The notes under the pieces are model-generated. The model was not told where the DNA came from and did no database searches. It was given only the letters and a program-made list of their open reading frames with translations. Both the position numbers and the translations under genes were made by a program. 64,000 nt of DNA from a virus: IMG/VR virus record IMGVR_UViG_3300010368_000009, positions 37,447 through 101,446 of that record; one strand, written 5' to 3'. This document shows, in pieces, positions 2,807 to 25,176 of this stretch (its first letter is position 1; every line of letters starts with the position of its first letter).

Positions 2807-2889
2807 TTAACGAGCAAATGAGTTGCAGTGGATATGGTTTGTCAAAGTATGAGTCTGATTATGATAATCCATTACATCCGGCACGTTAA
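2807..2889 (-). ncRNA. Y RNA-like unit 1 (minimal, 83 nt)
   Basis: RNA 5'-UUAACGUGC[C]GGAUG...GGAUUAUC...CAUUUGCUCGUUAA; bulged-C helix; adjacent to Ro60. Confidence 0.8.
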
Positions 2890-2907
2890 TATTACTATAT
2901 TACTAAT

Positions 2908-3053
2908 ATGGCTTTGTGAGCAAATGTATAGAAAATAGGGTTTAAGCGCTCTACCGCTGAGCTACCAAGCCGCGAACGACCTGAGTTGGATTCGAACCAA
3001 CGACCTCTCCATTACAAGTGGATAACCTATTTTCATCCGGCTCACAAAGCCAT
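2908..3053 (-). ncRNA. Y RNA-like unit 2 (YrlA-type) with circularly permuted tRNA-Thr(UGU) domain
   Basis: Ro stem GAGC[C]GGAUG/CAUUUGCUC, then anticodon arm UCCA-CUUGUAA-UGGA, T-arm GUUGG-UUCGAAU-CCAAC, loop-closed acceptor stem and D-arm GCUC-AGCGGUA-GAGC. Confidence 0.88.
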
Positions 3054-3058
3054 TTTAG

Positions 3059-3205
3059 TAAGACGAGTAAATGAAATGACAAAGGGATAATATACAGTTG
3101 CGTCTACCAATTCCGCCACTCCCCGTTAGATTGGTCGGGGAGACAGGACTTGAACCTGTAATACTCACTGTTCCTTAGATAACCCTAAATCTCCGACACG
3201 TCTTA
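3059..3205 (-). ncRNA. Y RNA-like unit 3 (YrlA-type) with permuted Leu-like tRNA domain
   Basis: Ro stem GUGU[C]GGA/UUUACUC; T-arm ACAGG-UUCAAGU-CCUGU; acceptor CUCCCCG-ACCAAUCUAA-CGGGGAG; D-arm GCGGAAUUGGUAGACGC. Confidence 0.85.
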
Positions 3206-3236
3206 AATCATTTCCTTCTTTGTTCAGTCGTTAGTA

Positions 3237-3305
3237 GTTACGAGCAAATTGTTGAAAATGGGGGTTCATCAACAAAAGATAACCCACTCTCATCCGGCAC
3301 GTAAC
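3237..3305 (-). ncRNA. Y RNA-like unit 4 (minimal, 69 nt)
   Basis: GUUACGUGC[C]GGAUGAGAGUGGGUUAUC...CCCAUUUUCAACAAUUUGCUCGUAAC. Confidence 0.82.
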
Positions 3306-3314
3306 CGCTTTAGT

Positions 3315-3382
3315 ACTGCGAGCAAATTGTTTGAAATGGGGGTTCATCGTTGCAAGATAACCCACTTCATCCGGCCCGCAGT
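3315..3382 (-). ncRNA. Y RNA-like unit 5 (minimal, 68 nt)
   Basis: ACUGCGGGC[C]GGAUGAAGUGGGUUAUC...CCCAUUUCAAACAAUUUGCUCGCAGU; near-paralog of unit 4. Confidence 0.82.
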
Positions 3383-3400
3383 CTTATTGCGATGTGGATA

Positions 3401-7295: not shown

Positions 7296-8759
7296 ATGAC
7301 CATCATTGTAAACGTAAATGAAATCGAACGCATTCTTTCCAATCCGATTCTTATGTCAGATTCGTATAAGTTTTCACATTGGAAGCAATACCCACAAAAA
7401 TCTTTGTATGTGAATAGCTACATTGAATCTCGCGGCATGTGTACCGAATTGGTCAACAGTGGCCTCGACAACGAGTTGGTATTCTTTGGTATCCAAGGAT
7501 TTATCAAGCGTTACCTGTCTCGCCAAATCACACCCCAACATATTGATGAAGCTGAAAAATTCTGCAAGAATCATGGTGAACCATTCAATCGTCGTGGCTT
7601 TGAAATAATCGTGAATGATTACAACGGCTATTACCCTGTCAGTATTCAGGCTATTCCAGAAGGAACAGTCATCAGTGCACACAATGTTATGGTTCAAGTA
7701 ATCAATACTGACTCTCGGTTGTACTGGTTGACCTCGTTTCTGGAAACTGCATTGCTTCGCGCCGTGTGGTATCCAGTTTCCGTGGCTACCAAGAGCCGGG
7801 AAATCAAAAAGGTTATTGCCAAATATATGGATGATACGGTTGGCAATCGTGATGGTTTGGAATTCAAACTTCATGATTTCGGTGCCCGTGGTGTTTCTTC
7901 TCAAGAATCGGCCATGATTGGTGGCGCTGCCCATCTGGTGAACTTCATGGGAACTGATACCGTTGAAGCCGCTGTATGGCTCTCTGCACTGTATAGTGAG
8001 CCTATGGCCGGGTTCTCGGTGCCAGCCGCTGAGCATAGCACCACGACGACTTGGGGTGGACCGGAAGGCGAAGAAGCTAGTTTCTTGAATATGCTGGAAC
8101 AATTCCAAGGCAACTACCCGATTATCTCGGTGGTATCTGATAGCTATGACATTTACAATGCGATCACCAATCTTTGGGGTGGCACATTGAAGGAAGCTGT
8201 TATCGCTGCTTCAAAAATGGGTAGCAAGTTGGTCGTTCGTCCAGACAGTGGTGATCCAACAACGGTTCCTATCGATTGTGTTAAACTACTGATGGAAGTC
8301 TTTGGATACACGACTAATGATCTTGGGTATAAGGTATTGCCACCATATATCGGTGTGCTTCAGGGTGATGGTATCAACATCAATTCCATTCGTGCCATTC
8401 TTGAAAACATGAAGCGTGCTGGACTGTCGGTGGAAAACATTGTGTTCGGTATGGGCGGTGAGTTGCTTCAGGGTCATATGCGTGATGATCACAAATTCGC
8501 CATGAAGGCTTCTGAGATTCGGGTTGGTGATGAAGTTCGGGATGTGTTCAAGCAGCCGGTTACGGATGCTATGAAAATTTCAAAGAAGGGTCGATTGGCA
8601 CTTATTGAAACCAGCGGCGTTGGTTCTCGTGGCTACAACACATTGCGTGAATGTAATTTGGGCTACTTGGATAAAAACCTACTGCGGGAAATTTACCGTA
8701 ATGGTGAAATTTTAATCGATGACACCTTTACAACCATTCGGAAGCGTGCCAGTATCTGA
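7296..8759 (+). CDS. nadV: nicotinamide phosphoribosyltransferase (NAMPT/NadV)
   Basis: DSYKFSHWKQYP, LHDFGARG, AAEHS, SVVSDSYD, VRPDSGDP, QGDGI, FGMGG. Confidence 0.95.
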   Translation: MTIIVNVNEIERILSNPILMSDSYKFSHWKQYPQKSLYVNSYIESRGMCTELVNSGLDNELVFFGIQGFIKRYLSRQITPQHIDEAEKFCKNHGEPFNRRGFEIIVNDYNGYYPVSIQAIPEGTVISAHNVMVQVINTDSRLYWLTSFLETALLRAVWYPVSVATKSREIKKVIAKYMDDTVGNRDGLEFKLHDFGARGVSSQESAMIGGAAHLVNFMGTDTVEAAVWLSALYSEPMAGFSVPAAEHSTTTTWGGPEGEEASFLNMLEQFQGNYPIISVVSDSYDIYNAITNLWGGTLKEAVIAASKMGSKLVVRPDSGDPTTVPIDCVKLLMEVFGYTTNDLGYKVLPPYIGVLQGDGININSIRAILENMKRAGLSVENIVFGMGGELLQGHMRDDHKFAMKASEIRVGDEVRDVFKQPVTDAMKISKKGRLALIETSGVGSRGYNTLRECNLGYLDKNLLREIYRNGEILIDDTFTTIRKRASI

Positions 8760-17113: not shown

Positions 17114-18442
17114 ATGATTATGCGTCCACCTATTGTTCAATCTGGCGAAACCATTACCGTTTATGTTGATGGCTTGCCTGAAACGATCAACCGCGACCAT
17201 TCCAATTGGGAACGCGTGAAGCAAGCCATTCGTGATGAACAATGGGATCAACTGGTTCCATTGATGAACATCCCGAAAGGACTGGTTCAATATAGTGAAG
17301 GCAACATCACGATTGTTGATGATGTGTTCCTTTTCCGTGGCATTGAAGTTGCGGATTATCTCGTCACGAAGATCATGGAAATGTTTCATGATAAGATGCC
17401 TATCCAGCCAATGGTTCGGTATTTTGAAAACCTGATGACCAATCCGAACCCGGAAGCACGCAAAGACCAATTCAAATGGTTGGAAGCTGGCAACATGCCG
17501 ATCACCGATGATGGTTATGTCATCGGGTACAAGTATGTTGATGAAAACTACAAGTCTTGTCACAACGGCGTTTGGGAACTGAAGGGTGGCAAGGATTGGA
17601 TTCTCAATACTGGTCGGTATTATGATCACGTTATTGGTTCCATTGTTACCATGCCACGTGAAAAGTGTGATGAAAACAGCCGCGCTACCTGTTCGACTGG
17701 TCTTCACTTCTGTTCGTTCTCGTATCTGAACTCTGGATATACGAAGTCCAAACGAATTGTTCTGGTCAAGATCAATCCGCGTGACATTGTTGCGGTTCCA
17801 GCCGATTATTCATTCGCCAAGGCTCGGTGCTGTGAATATGAAGTTATTACTGAAATCGATGTTCAAGAACACGGTGATATTCTGGCCGGGAAGCGTGTTG
17901 TTCGTGCTTCGCAAAAGATTACCACTCTTGATGATCTGATCTTCTCGCCAACACCGGCAGCTGTCGAAACTGATGCAGAGCGTCATGATCGTATTCTTGA
18001 AGAAGAGGAAGATGAACTTTATGAGGATCAATACAGTCTTCATGAAGATCATGTTGATTTTGATCGTGACGATGACGATGAAGACGTTGATGATGGTGAA
18101 ACTGAAACCTTCTACCATGAAGCAACGGATCAACGGTTCACTGCGGCTGAAGTATTGAACCTGTTGAGCAAATATGGTTCACAAGGTGCGGTTGCCCGTG
18201 AAACTTGTATTCCTCGATCAACGTTTGGTGGATGGTTGAACAAGATTACGGAAGATCGCGAATCATCTTCTGAAGTTCAACTTTCGTTTTTCCACGAAGG
18301 CACCAACCAAACCTTTACGGCACAAGGGGTTCTTGACCTGCTGTCCGCTCATGGTTCACAGGGTGCAGTTGAACGCAACATCGGTATTCCTCGATCCACT
18401 CTTCGTGGATGGTTGAACCGGATAGAAGCAGCCAACGGCTAA
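17114..18442 (+). CDS. rIIB: rIIB-like protein with duplicated C-terminal HTH
   Basis: ITDDGYVIGYK, MPREKCDEN..TCSTGLH, VKINPRDIVAVPADY...KARCCEYEV. Confidence 0.9.
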   Translation: MIMRPPIVQSGETITVYVDGLPETINRDHSNWERVKQAIRDEQWDQLVPLMNIPKGLVQYSEGNITIVDDVFLFRGIEVADYLVTKIMEMFHDKMPIQPMVRYFENLMTNPNPEARKDQFKWLEAGNMPITDDGYVIGYKYVDENYKSCHNGVWELKGGKDWILNTGRYYDHVIGSIVTMPREKCDENSRATCSTGLHFCSFSYLNSGYTKSKRIVLVKINPRDIVAVPADYSFAKARCCEYEVITEIDVQEHGDILAGKRVVRASQKITTLDDLIFSPTPAAVETDAERHDRILEEEEDELYEDQYSLHEDHVDFDRDDDDEDVDDGETETFYHEATDQRFTAAEVLNLLSKYGSQGAVARETCIPRSTFGGWLNKITEDRESSSEVQLSFFHEGTNQTFTAQGVLDLLSAHGSQGAVERNIGIPRSTLRGWLNRIEAANG

Positions 18443-18478
18443 CGTTCCCCCAGACGTTATGTTGACGGTTGCATCGGA

Positions 18479-18511
18479 GAATGGCTCTTGGAAACAAGGG
18501 CCATTCTTTTT
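18479..18511 (+). terminator. intrinsic terminator after rIIB
   Basis: GAATGGCTCTTG-GAAA-CAAGGGCCATTC-TTTTT. Confidence 0.8.
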
Positions 18512-18571
18512 ATGTAAACTTTGAAATATTTTTATTGACTCTATTGGTGATTTGCCTATAAGTAACATGAT

Positions 18572-18647
18572 GCGGATGTAGCTCAGTTGGCAGAGCGACA
18601 GATTTCCAATCTGTATGTCGTCGGTTCGAACCCGTCCATCCGCTCCA
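18572..18647 (+). tRNA. tRNA-Gly(TCC)
   Basis: ACAGA-TT TCC AA-TCTGT anticodon arm; U73 and CCA; promoter TTGACT-N16-TATAAGT upstream. Confidence 0.93.
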
Positions 18648-18653
18648 AGATTT

Positions 18654-18731
18654 GGTGCTGTAGCTCAGTTGGGAGAGCGCCACGCTCATAACGTGGGTCA
18701 GTCATCGGTTCGAGTCCGATCAGCACTACCA
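18654..18731 (+). tRNA. tRNA-CAT (elongator Met or Ile2)
   Basis: CCACG-CT CAT AA-CGTGG anticodon arm; A73 and CCA. Confidence 0.9.
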
Positions 18732-18904
18732 ATTCCATCGAAAGATGGAAACATTAACTTGCGGTTGCTACAGTTCCTCACCTGAAGAGATAGGCCGGTA
18801 GCATTAAATTAAATGGATGCGTTCAGCCGTATTTTATACTTGACTTATAGAAATTCAACCTGTATACAGATAATACAGAAACAACATACAAGGTAATAAA
18901 CATC

Positions 18905-19051
18905 ATGGCAAAGCACGCATCTGGTAATACTCATGTCGTTGGTGTACGTAAGCGCACCAGCATTGGTAACTCCTTCCGTTCGGGCGACAAGTCCAAGAAT
19001 GCGAAAAGCCGTAATGGTTCTCGCTTCACACGTGGTCAAGGTCGTCCGTGA
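18905..19051 (+). CDS. small basic protein ending RGQGRP (48 aa, not in ORF track)
   Basis: MAKHASGNTHVVGVRKRTSIGNSFRSGDKSKNAKSRNGSRFTRGQGRP; AAGG RBS; codons such as CGT, GGT and AAG suggest high expression. Confidence 0.75.
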   Translation: MAKHASGNTHVVGVRKRTSIGNSFRSGDKSKNAKSRNGSRFTRGQGRP

Positions 19052-19070
19052 ATAAAATGCAGTAACGGGG

Positions 19071-19099
19071 TTGACTTTATATAGATCGCCCTGTATAGT
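19071..19099 (+). promoter_or_regulatory. sigma70 promoter of the ncRNA region
   Basis: TTGACT-N17-TATAGT. Confidence 0.75.
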
Positions 19100-19107
19100 A
19101 TAAATCA

Positions 19108-19165
19108 TCGGCGGGGAGTTACTTCCTAGTAACTCCCCGCCGAAAGAATTGAATGCTCTTTGACA
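19108..19165 (+). promoter_or_regulatory. boxB-like hairpin plus boxA antitermination element
   Basis: Perfect 16-bp hairpin at 19108-19143, then TGCTCTTTGACA at 19154-19165, one mismatch from the rrn boxA TGCTCTTTAACA. Confidence 0.65.
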
Positions 19166-19174
19166 TTGTTGTGT

Positions 19175-19748
19175 GAAGCTTAGAACAGCTTCCGTTGGAG
19201 CATCGGGATAGATACTCCTTGTTTAACGAAAATAAACACTGTTGTGCTATTGGCATGGTATGATGGGTTCCGGTGTTTCATCGCAAGTTGTTCTAAAAGT
19301 TTGTTGACACAGATGCATGTGTTGTATTGGTGACCATAACCGGAGTACGGGGCGGAACTTTTACTGATCATTGCGGAATGCCTAGTTTAAATGGCGTGTG
19401 TCAAAGCCGGTGTCCCGTTTAAATCTGGGGATGTGACCGGCCTCGTCATCTTACAAAAGAGAGTCCAAACGTTTTCTAGAAACGACAAAAACTCAGCTCT
19501 GGTGGCCACAGAGAACCGGATATTCTCTTAATAGAGATAGCTTCGGGTGACGAGATATAGTTTTCGTGTACTGACTAGAGTGCACACAAGTTCCCTTCGG
19601 GGAAGGCATCTTATGGTGTCTTAGTGAATGGACTGACAAAAGAGAATATGGGCGGTAACCTGTAGGATCACAAATCAGTCGCCTTTACCGAGGAAAATCG
19701 GTTATTGTCATTCTGTTGGCATCACCACCAGAGTGGCTTACAGTCGGG
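19175..19748 (+). ncRNA. large structured ncRNA (or several adjacent RNAs), family unassigned
   Basis: No credible ORF; nested helices such as TTAGAACAGCTT/AAGTTGTTCTAA, TTGACACA/TGTGTCAA, CTCGTCATC/GGTGACGAG and a CUUCGG tetraloop. Confidence 0.6.
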
Positions 19749-19750
19749 AA

Positions 19751-19881
19751 TTAGTTTAGAGATGGGACGTAGCTCAATATGGTAGAGCTTCTTAATCCCG
19801 GCCACTTTGGAAAACGAACTGGTCCGGTAATGTCAAACGTTGTATGCGGGTTCGATTCCCGTCGCCTGTCATCTAAACTAG
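19751..19881 (+). ncRNA. tRNA-like RNA A (D and T arms, expanded anticodon region, no CCA)
   Basis: TAGCTCAATATGGTAGAGC; GCGGG-TTCGATT-CCCGT; closing TAGTTTAGA/TCTAAACTA. Confidence 0.7.
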
Positions 19882-19911
19882 CTGTTTCGTCCAAATGGAC
19901 AACAATAACTA

Positions 19912-19996
19912 TGCGTGCCGACTTAGACACATAGTCCGTAATACAAATGAGTGTCTGGATACGGTTGTAATGGGTTCGACTCCCGGTAGGCATGCA
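19912..19996 (+). ncRNA. tRNA-like RNA B (T-arm plus pseudoknot)
   Basis: TGCGTGCC/GGCATGCA; TGGG-TTCGACT-CCCG; crossing stems TAGACAC/GTGTCTG and CCGTA/TACGG. Confidence 0.55.
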
Positions 19997-20007
19997 AATG
20001 ATCTTAT

Positions 20008-20129
20008 AGTCGTTGGCTGTATTATCAGAAACAACACAAGGCCGTTGAGAATCCAGCGTGTTGTTTCTGGTAGGTGTCTAGATGGATATAGCTACCATCT
20101 AAGGAGTTCAAGTCTCTTAACGACTGCCA
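20008..20129 (+). ncRNA. tRNA-like RNA C with CCA end, long variable arm and no D-arm
   Basis: AGTCGTT/AACGACT-G-CCA; AGGAG-TTCAAGT-CTCTT; AGATGG/CCATCT; 14-bp central stem. Confidence 0.7.
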
Positions 20130-20131
20130 AT

Positions 20132-20256
20132 AATATCGAGTGAAGCACTGTCATAACATAGTTCGCGCAGAGGCTTATTATTTCGGGCTGGTATACTGAT
20201 GTGGAGTAGCGTAAGCTGACACCGATTAGTAATCAGTCAGGAATATACTCGGTATT
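20132..20256 (+). ncRNA. structured RNA D
   Basis: 11-bp closing stem AATATCGAGTG/TACTCGGTATT; internal ACTGAT/ATCAGT. Confidence 0.45.
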
Positions 20257-20281
20257 TTGTCAAGACAAATATACCTTATGA

Positions 20282-20371
20282 TTATGGGGTTGATCGATAA
20301 TGCTCAGTCTGGTAGAGCTTTCTTACAAAAACTAGGAAGGTCGTTGGTTCAAATCCAACTCGGTCGCATAA
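20282..20371 (+). ncRNA. tRNA-like RNA E (pseudo-tRNA, no CCA)
   Basis: GCTCAGTCTGGTAGAGC D-arm; GTTGG-TTCAAAT-CCAAC T-arm; TGATCGA/TCGGTCG; A-rich non-canonical anticodon loop. Confidence 0.7.
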
Positions 20372-20375
20372 ATAC

Positions 20376-20546
20376 TATCTATCAGTGCACGGGGTATGTG
20401 CACGCCTATATGTGAATCGCCCGTCCATCATCTGGTTACTGAGTAACAAGTAGGTAACAAATGGAGCAACGGGGGCAGTGAAGCAAGCGTTGAAAGTCGT
20501 CGAGGTTATGTAGACGATGGTTGGTTCGAATCCAATCTGATAGATA
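20376..20546 (+). ncRNA. tRNA-like RNA F (171 nt, large insert in place of the anticodon arm)
   Basis: TATCTATCAG/CTGATAGATA; TGCAC-GGGGTAT-GTGCA; TCGTC/GACGA; GTTGG-TTCGAAT-CCAAT. Confidence 0.65.
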
Positions 20547-20679
20547 TAATGGTGGCGTCATCTAGGAGCGGTGAAGTGTGCGTTCCGGGTGTTGCAGGCA
20601 TGCAAACCTATGCGGCAGTCCTTTTCCGAGGGCGAGTCGATTCTAGTCGTTTAACGAGCGACATGGCACCCCATCATTA
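20547..20679 (+). ncRNA. structured RNA G
   Basis: TAATGGTGG/CCATCATTA closing stem; CTAGGA/TTCTAG; GC-rich and non-coding. Confidence 0.45.
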
Positions 20680-20692
20680 AACGAGAAACATA

Positions 20693-21493
20693 ATGTTTTG
20701 GATAGTACAAGAAGATTTATATAACGAATACAATTATGATTCGTTTCTTGATTCGTTGAAAAGAATGAATATTGATCATGTATTGGTCAAGCCAATTCCA
20801 TTTACCAATACACTGGTTGATGAAGATCAAATTCATATCGATGATACCAAACCGATAATCGTATCAGGATCAATGGGATTAGTTCGTGTGGCTCGCCGTA
20901 GAGGTTGGAAGCCCGGATCATTCCTTGATGAAGATTTCGAATTCACTCAATGGCGTGATGGCTTCGGTAAAAAACATTGTATGAATGGATGGGGCAAGGT
21001 CAGTAAATTACGGGATGCATCTTTTTCCGGTAGCGATATATTCGTTCGTCCGACAGCTGATAATAAATCTTTCAACGGAACTATTATGAACCGGGAAGAG
21101 TTTATTTGCTGGCGTGACCATTATGCGGACATCGAACCAACCGATGAATTTCAATTACTCCATGCTGATACAGAAATTATGTTATGTCAGCCTAAAAACA
21201 TTTCGGCTGAATACAGATTCTTTATCGCTGGTGGCCAAATTCTAACCGGAAGCCTGTATTCTAGAAATAGACGCGTCCTTTATCAAGAATGTGTTGATGC
21301 AGGGCCGATAGCATTCATCAATGCAATGATCGCCATATATCAACCAGCGGAAGCATTCGTTCTAGATATAGCTTATATTCATGGTGAGTATAAAATAATT
21401 GAAGTTAATAATTTCAATTCATCTGGTTATTATGCTTGTGATGTTCAGAAAATCATTGACGGGGTTGAACAATTAACTTACAAGTATGAATAA
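20693..21493 (+). CDS. ATP-grasp domain protein (DUF4343/R2K-like)
   Basis: FVRPTADNKSFNG, EYRFFI, FVLDIA..YKIIEVNNFNSSGYY. Confidence 0.8.
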   Translation: MFWIVQEDLYNEYNYDSFLDSLKRMNIDHVLVKPIPFTNTLVDEDQIHIDDTKPIIVSGSMGLVRVARRRGWKPGSFLDEDFEFTQWRDGFGKKHCMNGWGKVSKLRDASFSGSDIFVRPTADNKSFNGTIMNREEFICWRDHYADIEPTDEFQLLHADTEIMLCQPKNISAEYRFFIAGGQILTGSLYSRNRRVLYQECVDAGPIAFINAMIAIYQPAEAFVLDIAYIHGEYKIIEVNNFNSSGYYACDVQKIIDGVEQLTYKYE

Positions 21494-21507
21494 AGAGGAT
21501 AACATTG

Positions 21508-21909
21508 ATGACAACAATGGTTTGGCTCGACGAAGAGAATAAAATAGCCTATACGGATTATGACCGTAATGATAGTCGTGTCGAATCGCGTGCGCAAGAT
21601 GTTCCAAGCGGAACCACACCGGGTGATAAACTTTATATTGTTTCGGTGGTTTATGAGTGGTATGATTCTGAAAGTCGTGAAGGTCCGTATTCCAAAGTTA
21701 TAGCGATGACGGTTGATGTTGTTGCTGTTGCAAAGTTGAAAATTGCTTTGAACGAATTATTGTTCGGTAGAAAACGGTATGACAATGATAAGGATCATAC
21801 GGTTGAGTCTAAGATCGAATTCGAAGGCTATATGATCAATTATGGTGAATTCTTGGGATGGGGAACATCCGCAAAAGAATTAAAACTTGAAGTTTACAAC
21901 GTGGTGTGA
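21508..21909 (+). CDS. hypothetical protein
   Basis: GAGG RBS; co-oriented with neighbours. Confidence 0.65.
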   Translation: MTTMVWLDEENKIAYTDYDRNDSRVESRAQDVPSGTTPGDKLYIVSVVYEWYDSESREGPYSKVIAMTVDVVAVAKLKIALNELLFGRKRYDNDKDHTVESKIEFEGYMINYGEFLGWGTSAKELKLEVYNVV

Positions 21910-22219: not shown

Positions 22220-22600
22220 ATTTGTACTAAACTGGACGCAGGTCCGATGAAACTGCGGCGGGAAGTAGCTACCTTAGCCGTATGGAGGATATGTACAAAT
22301 ACGGGTGCATTAGAGGAAGTTACTAATGCAGTAAAAAAGGAACGAAGCGTGATCCCTTGTTCCACCCACCATTATTAGTAGGCCGTCAGTCTAACCGTTT
22401 CTGAAGGTAAAAGCGAAGGTTATAAAGCATCCGCTGCCTACACGGTGGTTCTTGATAACAGTTATCAAGAATATGATGTGCCTTATCAATGGCTCTGGGG
22501 TACATCATTAAAAACCCATTAGCTGGCCCTTTCGAGGCATGCCATAGACAAATATCGAACGTTGTATAGTACACAGCGAAACCGCGATTGTCGGTCGGGG
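22220..22600 (+). ncRNA. cluster of small structured RNAs, one ending in ACCA
   Basis: ATTTGTAC/GTACAAAT; GGGT...ACCC-ACCA; GTAGGC/GCCTAC; ATGATGTGCC/GGTACATCAT. Confidence 0.45.
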
Positions 22601-24324: not shown

Positions 24325-25176
24325 ATGAGAAATTTTGGTGAACACGAAGGCGAACCTTGTTTGCTTCTTGGATATAGAGCAAACAATGGTAATATGCTGT
24401 TGGTACATTTGAATGATATTAGTGGTACTGCTGAAGTAGATACCATGATTAATTTCTTACAACGGCACAGAATGGACAATCGTAATATTGCAGCAATTCT
24501 TGCAGCAGAACCATCCCCGTTTATGGGATATCCAAGCATGATTGCATATTACTCTGGTAAGGCGGGTCATGATGGAAGTTCATCTTCGCTTCGCCAAATT
24601 CCTGAATTTTATATTTCGATGTATGATCAGCAGCAATCCGAAAGCTGGATTGGATCATCTGCTAGATATAAAGCTAAGCAGAAATCTCATCCGTTCTTGG
24701 ATAGATTTAAAGCATCATTGGGTCAACCTATTACAAAGTCGGATGAGCCATTGATTGAAAACAGACCAACCATCGCACCGGCACAATCTGAAAAGATTGA
24801 GGGTGATGCTGCACTTGCCTATCTCAAGCAACACAACCTACCGATCCCAGATCAACTTAAGCCGATGGTGGAACCTGTTGCCGAACCAATGGAACTTGAA
24901 GAATTTGTTTCTGGTGGCGGTAGTGGTCGCGGAACCAAGGTGGAAACATTGGATACGGTAGCAGAACAGCAATTGGCAGCATTGATGCAAATTGTTACAT
25001 TACAGAAGAACCTACTTGAGCAACAGGCCGAAGCATCTGGTCAAATCAAACGCGTTCTAGGACGTGTTGATGCTGTGGACAAATCTCTTCGCAGTGCCGC
25101 TAGAAATATGGAAAAGGCTGGTTTTGAAAAACCGGTTGTCCCTCCTACTAAGGCATCTCGTGGAAAGTCCAGTTAA
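24325..25176 (+). CDS. hypothetical protein
   Basis: Start moved to MRNFGEH, which follows an AAGGA RBS; the earlier part overlaps the previous gene. Confidence 0.65.
   Translation: MRNFGEHEGEPCLLLGYRANNGNMLLVHLNDISGTAEVDTMINFLQRHRMDNRNIAAILAAEPSPFMGYPSMIAYYSGKAGHDGSSSSLRQIPEFYISMYDQQQSESWIGSSARYKAKQKSHPFLDRFKASLGQPITKSDEPLIENRPTIAPAQSEKIEGDAALAYLKQHNLPIPDQLKPMVEPVAEPMELEEFVSGGGSGRGTKVETLDTVAEQQLAALMQIVTLQKNLLEQQAEASGQIKRVLGRVDAVDKSLRSAARNMEKAGFEKPVVPPTKASRGKSS

Follow-up and report, generated by a model that had tools for sequence, protein, structure and literature searches.

An array of tRNA-derived modules without decoding features in a boxA-led, putative stable-RNA operon of an uncultivated jumbo phage

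Introduction

What could be the role of a phage locus that has no open reading frame (ORF) and strings together one tRNA-like domain after another, none of which offers an anticodon loop to the ribosome? The question is raised by positions 19752-20679 of a 64,000-nucleotide stretch of viral DNA (here called the window), which corresponds to bases 37447-101446 of the 101-kb IMG/VR record IMGVR_UViG_3300010368_000009 (estimated completeness ~30%) and is found in aquatic/freshwater metagenome sequencing runs. Since the nearest complete relative (G001) is a 335.5-kb phage genome with terminal repeats, we take the source of the window to be a jumbo phage.

A first-pass annotation, made from the letters of the window alone, had seen at this place RNAs on tRNA scaffolds with exchanged inner parts and had proposed decoys, or RNAs tagged by T-arms and cut out by RNase P/Z, as part of a possibly undescribed counter-defence system. 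Our analysis upholds the tRNA-derived scaffolds, in which an acceptor-type helix and a T-arm are kept and the decoding part is replaced, places the array within a boxA-led non-coding unit and favors a reading in which a precursor RNA may be processed into stable tRNA mimics.

Results

The array comprises seven stem-closed modules (M1 to M7) on the + strand which are joined by linkers of 1-33 nt and contain no ORF between the first and the last of them. Linkers are richer in A+T (69%) than modules (53%), and the back-to-back layout is found exactly where the first-pass annotation had put it. In the following list, z denotes folding scores relative to dinucleotide shuffles.

M1, 19752..19880, + strand: 17-bp interrupted closing helix, canonical D-arm, enlarged hairpin, small hairpin, T-arm at 19846-19862, no CCA; z -3.7
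M2, 19912..19996, + strand: interrupted 8+3 bp closing helix, core able to form a pseudoknot, T-arm at 19970-19986, no CCA; z -0.8
M3, 20008..20129, + strand: perfect 7-bp acceptor stem, no D-arm, 14-16 bp rod, 7-bp extra hairpin, T-arm at 20102-20118, G73, encoded CCA; z -4.3
M4, 20132..20257, + strand: long irregular hairpin domain, no T-arm; z -4.0
M5, 20291..20367, + strand: complete cloverleaf, 7-bp acceptor stem, D-arm, T-arm at 20343-20359, no CCA; z -1.9
M6, 20376..20546, + strand: perfect 9-bp closing stem, D-like hairpin, multi-hairpin insert of ~95 nt, T-arm at 20520-20536, no CCA; z -2.2
M7, 20548..20679, + strand: stem-closed four-hairpin domain, no T-arm; z -2.2

What stands in for the D or anticodon parts likewise agrees with the earlier description: an enlarged hairpin in M1, a core in M2 for which an H-type pseudoknot can be drawn (19923-30/19951-58 and 19936-40/19960-64), a rod in M3 (whose closing stem is Watson-Crick in 7/7 pairs), an A-rich loop of 10 nt capping the 5-6 bp 'anticodon' stem of M5, and the insert of M6, next to a D-like hairpin with GGGG in its loop. 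Folded as a whole the stretch scores z -5.2 and its modules range from -4.3 to -0.8; real tRNAs of the phage lie between -0.7 and -2.3 and ORF controls between +0.2 and -1.2.

Canonical T-arms (G53, TTCRANN loop, C61) are present in five of the seven modules (M1, M2, M3, M5, M6), with stems of 4-5 bp starting at 19846, 19970, 20102, 20343 and 20520 and with exactly those T-loops that had been quoted for them. Elsewhere on the + strand, tRNA genes excluded, ~100 kb contain seven matches to this pattern, so that five T-arms in 0.7 kb, where ~0.05 are expected (Poisson p ~2e-9), amount to clustering far beyond chance. Each of the five T-stems is followed without a gap by the 3' strand of its module's closing helix, the way in which acceptor stem and T-arm adjoin in tRNA, and with T54, T55, C56, R57 and A58 in place the acceptor helix and T-stem measure 7/5 bp in M3 and M5 and 9/5 bp in M6, the helices of M1 and M2 being interrupted. 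A census of 7-mer closing stems was dropped as evidence; it is too lax and 87% of random positions pass it.

Where do these modules come from? M5 aligns over its length with tRNAs of this phage group (and is matched to them by BLAST), the D-arms of M1 and M5 are 89% identical over 19 nt, the T-arms of M1 and M2 93% over 14 nt and the T-arm regions of M5 and M6 83% over 23 nt. The M5 alignment, together with D- and T-arm sequence common to modules, indicates that the array derives from tRNA genes. Judged by these sequences the modules are relatives of tRNA, in which the upper half was kept and the decoding half lost or replaced. The 15-48 tertiary pair is kept, too, in two forms: A15 in the D-arm of M1 with U48 just before the T-stem, and G15 with C48 in M5, the same A15-U48/G15-C48 alternation that Chen et al. 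describe for YrlA RNAs (PMC4201824).

While descent from tRNA is plain, the features needed for decoding are missing. None of the seven modules has a 7-nt anticodon loop (that of M5 has 10 nt and other structures occupy the place in M1, M2, M3 and M6), which makes it unlikely that the array serves as bait for anticodon nucleases such as PrrC, RloC or PARIS. CCA is encoded by 17/17 canonical phage tRNAs as opposed to one of the five T-arm modules (M3, the only CCA in the whole array, as had been noted), and M5 ends in ATA at the very position where the 17 real tRNAs have CCA. Against the Rfam tRNA model (RF00005), M5 alone reaches the threshold (29.7 bits versus 29) and M1, M2, M3 and M6 have no match at E<=10. 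ARAGORN, suggested at the outset as a check, calls none of the modules at default settings, with or without introns; calls under relaxed settings (-ps80, -ps70) were mutually inconsistent and are taken as noise. Nor does ARAGORN call a transfer-messenger RNA (tmRNA) in the array, and the acceptor stem of M3 has U3-A70 rather than G3:U70. Rfam tmRNA matches were set aside as T-arm-sized or weak permuted-tmRNA hits (13.6 and 14.8 bits versus a threshold of 47, the 14.8-bit one spanning M1-M2), as was a match to an S-adenosylmethionine/S-adenosylhomocysteine (SAM/SAH) riboswitch inside M6 (16 bits versus 40, E 1.5).

Might the modules nonetheless work as tRNAs of odd build, be it intron-containing, allo-tRNA-like or frameshift-reading? 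Irregular and 8/4 tRNAs do occur in phage clusters, polycistrons of irregular tRNAs are on record (PMC5389517), and M3 combines a 7/5 acceptor branch with G73-CCA and a long extra arm. However, an anticodon stem with a 7- or 8-nt loop is found in no module, ARAGORN, run with its intron option at default thresholds, comes up empty, the 20-95 nt inserts fall short of group I intron size and match no ribozyme family, and four of the five T-arm modules are without the CCA that every real tRNA here encodes. We consider functional tRNAs a very improbable account of the array.

How the array may be expressed is suggested by what precedes it. Upstream of M1 lie the following features, which together with the modules make up a non-coding unit.

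19071..19099, + strand: sigma-70-type promoter-like site, TTGACT-17-TATAGT, 10/12 matches, the best site in 18400-21000
19108..19143, + strand: perfect 16-bp G+C-rich hairpin in boxB position, not followed by a U-run on the + strand
19154..19171, + strand: boxA-like 18-mer TGCTCTTTGACATTGTTG, 3' of the hairpin
19159..19752, + strand: structured domains (~590 nt, several closed multi-helix domains) forming the context of the array

The promoter-like site is likely to be the start of the unit. Between ~19071 and 20692 neither strand holds a credible ORF under table 11, TAG=Q or table 4, and on the + strand no ORF of >=90 aa appears with TAG=Q or table 4. The 18-mer contains a core, GCUCUUUG, that agrees in 7/8 bases with the boxA core of ribosomal RNA (rrn) operons, GCUCUUUA; its likeness to the rrn element makes the unit look like a stable-RNA operon with Nus-type antitermination. 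One published account gives the boxA core as 8 nt (PMC3177189). An exact search with TGCTCTTTGACATTGTTG returned 12 viral contigs, and in at least five of them (L108, L111, L114, L116, L118) it stands directly ahead of ordinary tRNA arrays; in L114 it also stands before further irregular tRNA-like modules. Given promoter and boxA 18-mer in several unrelated large phages, this suggests that phage tRNA operons may commonly use Nus-type antitermination.

The long structured leader brings up another scenario, in which 19150-20680 is one large ornate RNA that resembles GOLLD or ROOL, has tRNA-like elements embedded in it and folds or oligomerizes as a unit. GOLLD and ROOL are phage RNAs of unknown function that lie near tRNA islands and are sometimes covalently linked to tRNAs; GOLLD env-38 is located downstream of tRNA-Met, and tRNAs can sit in the GOLLD linker (PMC12286853). 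The unit studied here follows tRNA-Gly and tRNA-Met and opens with the ~590 nt of multi-helix domains, which would fit. Yet covariance models of GOLLD and ROOL give no match at E<=10 over 18700-20900, no other large-RNA family of Rfam is matched at E<=10, and the ~590 nt themselves hit no Rfam family at that cutoff. Moreover, each module is closed by a helix of its own with A/U-rich single-stranded linkers in between, a layout typical of precursors, and the corresponding unit of G001 (see below) is 3.1 kb long with different modules. A single ornate RNA is thus rather improbable.

A weak hint that the array is expressed comes from two metatranscriptome runs (two studies) with contigs at 19332-19504, 19601-19849, 20388-20557 and 20393-20662; it is weak because low-depth contigs show neither ends nor strand, and DNA carry-over is possible. 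Across 18400-21600 all phage-specific contigs from RNA runs map within the non-coding unit; the flanking protein genes, covered by DNA runs, have none. M2-M5 are uncovered by such contigs, whose patchiness forbids any conclusion from that. Strain variants in the RNA runs (19701, 19737, 19742, 19749, all 5' of M1) keep two pairs as G-U, break one and leave one position that is unpaired, numbers too small to count.

Is the unit found in relatives? In G001, a neighboring protein of which is 69% identical, the interval from tRNA-Met to the R2K gene (described below) holds four small paralogous ORFs and no array. Instead, a gene for a basic protein, a promoter, the boxA 18-mer and an ORF-free stretch of ~3.1 kb are found 3' of R2K. 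That stretch (L001 7012-10650; G001:C1 ~296400-300030) folds into ~16 back-to-back stem-closed domains of 110-260 nt, and one of its T-arm domains (L001 ~7922-7995) has the shape of a tRNA whose anticodon arm is sealed by a tetraloop. TGCTCTTTGACATTGTTG, at 100% identity, is the sole part of the unit conserved between the two phages; beyond it there is no sequence similarity between the units and no module can be aligned. On this comparison the type of operon appears to be conserved while its module content turns over.

Wider searches gave little more. Distant blastn (word 11) of the array against 50,697 phage records had no match, the stable RNAs of T5 and T4 included, and with word 7-9 the unit matched the collected loci and G001 just in the boxA 18-mer, generic T-arms and the M5-to-tRNA alignments. 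Neither an exact 27-mer of the M3 3' end nor the upstream 442-aa protein retrieved anything usable from viral contigs. In a separate element of G001 (G001:C1 ~183660-183950), a 7-bp closing strand and ACCA come after a perfect T-arm, and the partner strand lies ~290 nt upstream; ARAGORN does not call this element as a tRNA, and candidate readings are a tmRNA-like gene or a tRNA interrupted by a large insert or intron.

These comparisons bear on whether the modules are simply decaying tRNA genes, still transcribed within the operon and at most acting like t-elements, as passive processing punctuation for a transcript that continues into R2K. M5 does not differ from ordinary phage tRNAs but for its 10-nt loop and lost CCA, and in other phages intact tRNA arrays follow the same boxA leader; G001 conserves none of the modules, M2 has a z of just -0.8 and a terminator is lacking ahead of R2K. 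Neutral decay, however, should break stems everywhere, whereas G53/C61, the T-loop consensus and 4-5 stem pairs persist in each of the five T-arms, and closing helices are intact or longer than in tRNA (without mismatch over 9 bp in M6 and over 7 bp in M3), an argument already made in the first-pass annotation and one we find sound. In addition, the replaced parts are well-formed helices (z down to -4.3), and M4 and M7 are structured without any tRNA remnant. Decay is in our view an unlikely reading.

The phage also encodes genuine Y RNAs, which allows the parallel drawn earlier between the array and such RNAs to be judged directly. The relevant features are located near one end of the window.

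1111-2817, - strand: Ro60/TROVE gene, 568-aa frame
2807-2890, - strand: sbRNA/Y-like match (sbRNA model)
~2909-3051, - strand: YrlA-type RNA (RF02553, 28.4 bits, E 2e-4) in permuted order, that is T-arm, acceptor hairpin, D-arm
3237-3306, - strand: sbRNA/Y-like match (sbRNA model)
3315-3383, - strand: sbRNA/Y-like match (sbRNA model)

These four RNAs, just upstream of the Ro60 gene, share a Ro-binding-type helix. A further T-arm element is seen at ~3159, near the Ro60 gene, and G001 has the same Ro60/Y RNA arrangement at G001:C1:277119-278600. Could the modules then be extra Y RNAs, bound like YrlA by the phage's own Ro60? In favor of this, the YrlA-like RNA and M5 are 93% identical over 30 nt of T-arm and 3' acceptor strand, and the D- and T-arm sequences of M1 and M5 are close to the YrlA consensus. 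But the T-arm of M5 is common to ordinary tRNAs of this phage group as well, the helix motif of the four Ro-adjacent RNAs (GCCGGATG ... TTTGCTC; window 2807-3383, - strand only) is absent from 19100-20700, and neither RF02553 nor the sbRNA model has a match in 19300-20900 at E<=10. Besides, the array lies 17 kb from the Ro60 gene on the opposite strand, and its tRNA-like parts have the ordinary rather than the permuted topology. With the motif absent and no Y-RNA model matched, the modules are not Y RNAs by the tests available, the parallel does not extend to membership, and a role as Ro60 ligands looks very improbable.

Turning to the neighborhood of the unit, the genes on either side are as follows.

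18572-18731: tRNA-Gly(TCC) and tRNA-Met, ~1 kb upstream of the array
18905-19051: 48-aa very basic ORF (KKRTSIG...TRGQGRP), between tRNA-Met and the non-coding unit
20693..21493, + strand: R2K-clade ATP-grasp gene directly 3' of the array (Pfam PF14243, 2e-18; also PF18299)

The start codon of R2K follows the end of M7 after 14 nt, and a terminator scan found no terminator-like site between the two. An identical copy of the R2K protein is encoded on a 317-kb contig and another relative (P0003) is 62% identical, while a metagenome scan with the R2K alignment gave relatives of <=55% identity only. In many of 19 metagenomic loci with R2K relatives (L006-L024) the gene lies beside or inside tRNA arrays. 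In one of them (L006), an intergenic tRNA-like RNA of 106 nt lies 25 nt upstream of R2K; its acceptor stem of 6-7 bp encloses two inner hairpins, one of which is T-arm-like, and a T-arm, and it ends in ACCA. The 48-aa basic protein has a family of >130 relatives, encoded in small viral contigs. Its gene precedes the non-coding unit in this phage and in G001, but a tie to the RNA operon was rejected as 80 relatives elsewhere (L027-L106) have no adjoining tRNA or ORF-free stretch.

Rfam finds 19 tRNA matches in the record, eight of them inside the window. The phage further encodes an enzyme of the CCA-adding/poly(A) polymerase family (391-aa frame; G000:C1:28696-29055, outside the window), although all 17 canonical tRNAs already carry CCA in their genes; genes for RtcB or RNase III are present neither in G000 nor in G001. 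Other tRNA-like elements are scattered around. Within the window, 3' of the R2K operon, another small cluster of stem-closed RNAs occupies 22220-22445; one of them, a 69-nt element of two hairpins, is closed by GGGU/ACCC and ends in ACCA (z -2.5). Outside it, an 83-nt element without ARAGORN call (G000:C1:16756-16838) joins a 7-bp acceptor stem with G3-U70, a T-arm and A73-CCA to a non-tRNA core. G3:U70 being the identity pair of alanine, this element might be charged by alanyl-tRNA synthetase. Two serine-type tRNAs, also outside the window (G000:C1:14215-14300 and 24568-24655; anticodons CGA and GGA by eye, G73-CCA), have a 6-bp D-stem and a D-loop of 4-5 nt and were missed by the Rfam search; their acceptor branch can be drawn as 8/4, like that of the phage (8/4) tRNA-Ser of Mukai et al. 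(PMC5389517).

Discussion

Taken together, we favor, with a probability of roughly 0.55, a reading in which host enzymes of tRNA processing cut a boxA-protected precursor and thereby release stable tRNA mimics of 77-171 nt that do not decode. The array would form the distal part of a non-coding, polycistronic stable-RNA operon of the jumbo phage, led by the promoter at 19071, the hairpin and the rrn-type boxA and protected from Rho in the way rRNA and tRNA operons are. Duplication and remodelling of tRNA genes belonging to the phage itself probably gave rise to its modules, whereby selection may have kept the upper half, i.e. an acceptor-type helix stacked on a T-arm (joined in M1 and M5 by D-arm and 15-48 pair), and let the decoding half give way to a rod, an oversized loop, a possible pseudoknot or hairpins unrelated to it. 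We infer processing, stability and any function of the modules from this build: cuts in the precursor would fall at acceptor helices and within the A/U-rich linkers, made by RNase P at 5' ends and by RNase E or Z plus exonucleases at 3' ends, and CCA might be added by the host enzyme or by the CCA-adding-type enzyme of the phage. The boxA-led unit and its A/U-rich linkers fit the proposal of the first-pass annotation that T-arm-tagged RNAs are cut out by RNase P/Z, the cutting itself being the conjectural part. The resulting RNAs should look like tRNA to proteins reading acceptor stem, T-arm or elbow but be unable to decode, and would be of the same kind as T5 RNA1/RNA2/RNA3 and T4 RNAC/RNAD.

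Several points speak against this reading. With interrupted acceptor helices in M1 and M2 and helices of more than 7 bp in M1 and M6, it is not obvious where RNase P would cleave, and M2 folds no better than shuffles. Except for M5, the searches gave no alignable homologue of any module and hence no covariation. In G001 the operon is elsewhere, its module sequences are unrelated and T-arms number only three in 3.1 kb, a divergence which may fit fast turnover and equally well weak constraint. Support from RNA consists of low-depth assembled contigs that are blind to processing as well as to ends and strand, from runs that may contain DNA.

As for the partner, the likeliest class is a protein that reads the acceptor stem, T-arm or 3' end: for instance a defence factor or toxin that targets tRNA ends, or one that matures or repairs tRNA. 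We think an anticodon nuclease less probable. This leads to a narrower version of the counter-defence idea, in which the array is a set of diversified upper-half tRNA mimics with differing cargo that act as sponge or decoy for factors reading acceptor stem, T-arm and 3' end. Nucleases of the Cas12a3 type, which cleave CCA tails, bind acceptor stem, T-arm and CCA (PMC12851939), and by analogy readers like these would be the more plausible partners. If the decoy idea were true, toxins that modify tRNA 3' ends would be other targets, the phage's CCA-adding enzyme would keep decoys loaded and the fast turnover of modules between related phages would reflect an arms race. We regard this version as tentative and doubtful.

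Irrespective of function, three kinds of tRNA-shaped RNA within one genome (real tRNAs, Ro60-associated Y RNAs and the mimics), together with a CCA-adding enzyme, help to narrow down what the mimics are: not decoders, not Ro ligands judged by motif and unlikely to be bait for anticodon nucleases. The contrast directs attention to proteins by which the upper half of tRNA is recognized. Taken by itself, the locus serves as a well-documented case rather than as a solution to what such RNAs do.

Among known systems that resemble the array, GOLLD and ROOL share its company of tRNAs; they have one conserved fold, whereas the array is modular, like beads on a string. YrlA and other Y RNAs (RF02553) likewise practise non-decoding tRNA mimicry with conserved D- and T-arms and the 15-48 pair, and YrlA of M. 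smegmatis is cleaved by RNase P and receives CCA (PMC4201824). Unlike YrlA, the array has no Ro-binding helix, does not lie beside a Ro gene, is unpermuted and matches no covariance model of this class. The tRNA-miRNA units (TMERs) of murine gammaherpesvirus 68 make use of tRNA-like cutting signals. In plant mitochondria, t-elements mimic acceptor and T-arm and thereby let RNase P or Z cut a longer transcript (PMC1920247), and mascRNA is a tRNA-like processing signal of a similar type (PMC8457004). All of these are eukaryotic or organellar and their tRNA-like part cuts out a neighboring RNA, whereas here the modules may be the product. Irregular tRNAs and allo-tRNAs occur in clusters and polycistrons, some of them in phages, and some are charged but unused in translation (Mukai et al., PMC5389517); they keep an anticodon arm and a 12-bp acceptor branch, in contrast to the array, which has no anticodon arm and 12 bp only in M3 and M5.

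The closest counterparts come from T4 and T5, whose tRNA clusters have been known for decades to include tRNA-like stable RNAs with a function that is still unknown. RNAC and RNAD of T4 (species 1 and 2 RNAs) are processed alongside tRNAs and have tRNA-like ends. They are encoded with the phage tRNA genes and seen as RNAs in infection, their function being unknown (PMC9697503); they are also small RNAs among tRNA genes, but two RNAs rather than an array and without sequence relation to it. For T5 (GenBank AY543070), RNA1 and RNA2 are annotated as 'tRNA-like stable RNA with unknown functions' inside the tRNA region, which also carries RNA3, RNAI, RNAIII, RNAIV, RNA2H and the 719-nt RNAX. These T5 RNAs are stem-closed, measure 73-172 nt and lie head to tail with tRNAs and each other (RNA1, RNAI, RNAIII and tRNA-His are contiguous); RNAX, behind a promoter and directly ahead of tRNA-Arg, is placed much like the long structured leader of the unit described here. 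When we folded them, the closing stem of RNA2 (8 bp) led directly into a canonical T-arm and enclosed a non-tRNA core, and RNA1 kept D- and T-arms around a core of ~70 nt.

Given these T5 records and the like nature of T4 RNAC/RNAD, to call the array undescribed was too strong. M1, M2, M3 and M6 have the T5-type design of an acceptor-type closing stem and T-arm around a non-tRNA core, M5 has it with an oversized loop, and the setting agrees as well, with the array 1 kb downstream of tRNA-Gly and tRNA-Met and led by a boxA as heads tRNA arrays elsewhere. The T5 RNA1/RNA2/RNA3 type is a descriptive class and not a family of homologues. Sequence similarity to T5 is nil, and the present array is known from its sequence, with metatranscriptome contigs over parts of the unit. 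It differs from T5 by its five T-arm modules in a row within a single boxA-led unit, its longer closing helices and its larger inserts. The same design thus stands out very clearly in an unrelated, uncultivated jumbo phage, where five RNAs keep the acceptor/T-arm half of tRNA within an operon that appears to be antiterminated in the style of rrn operons.

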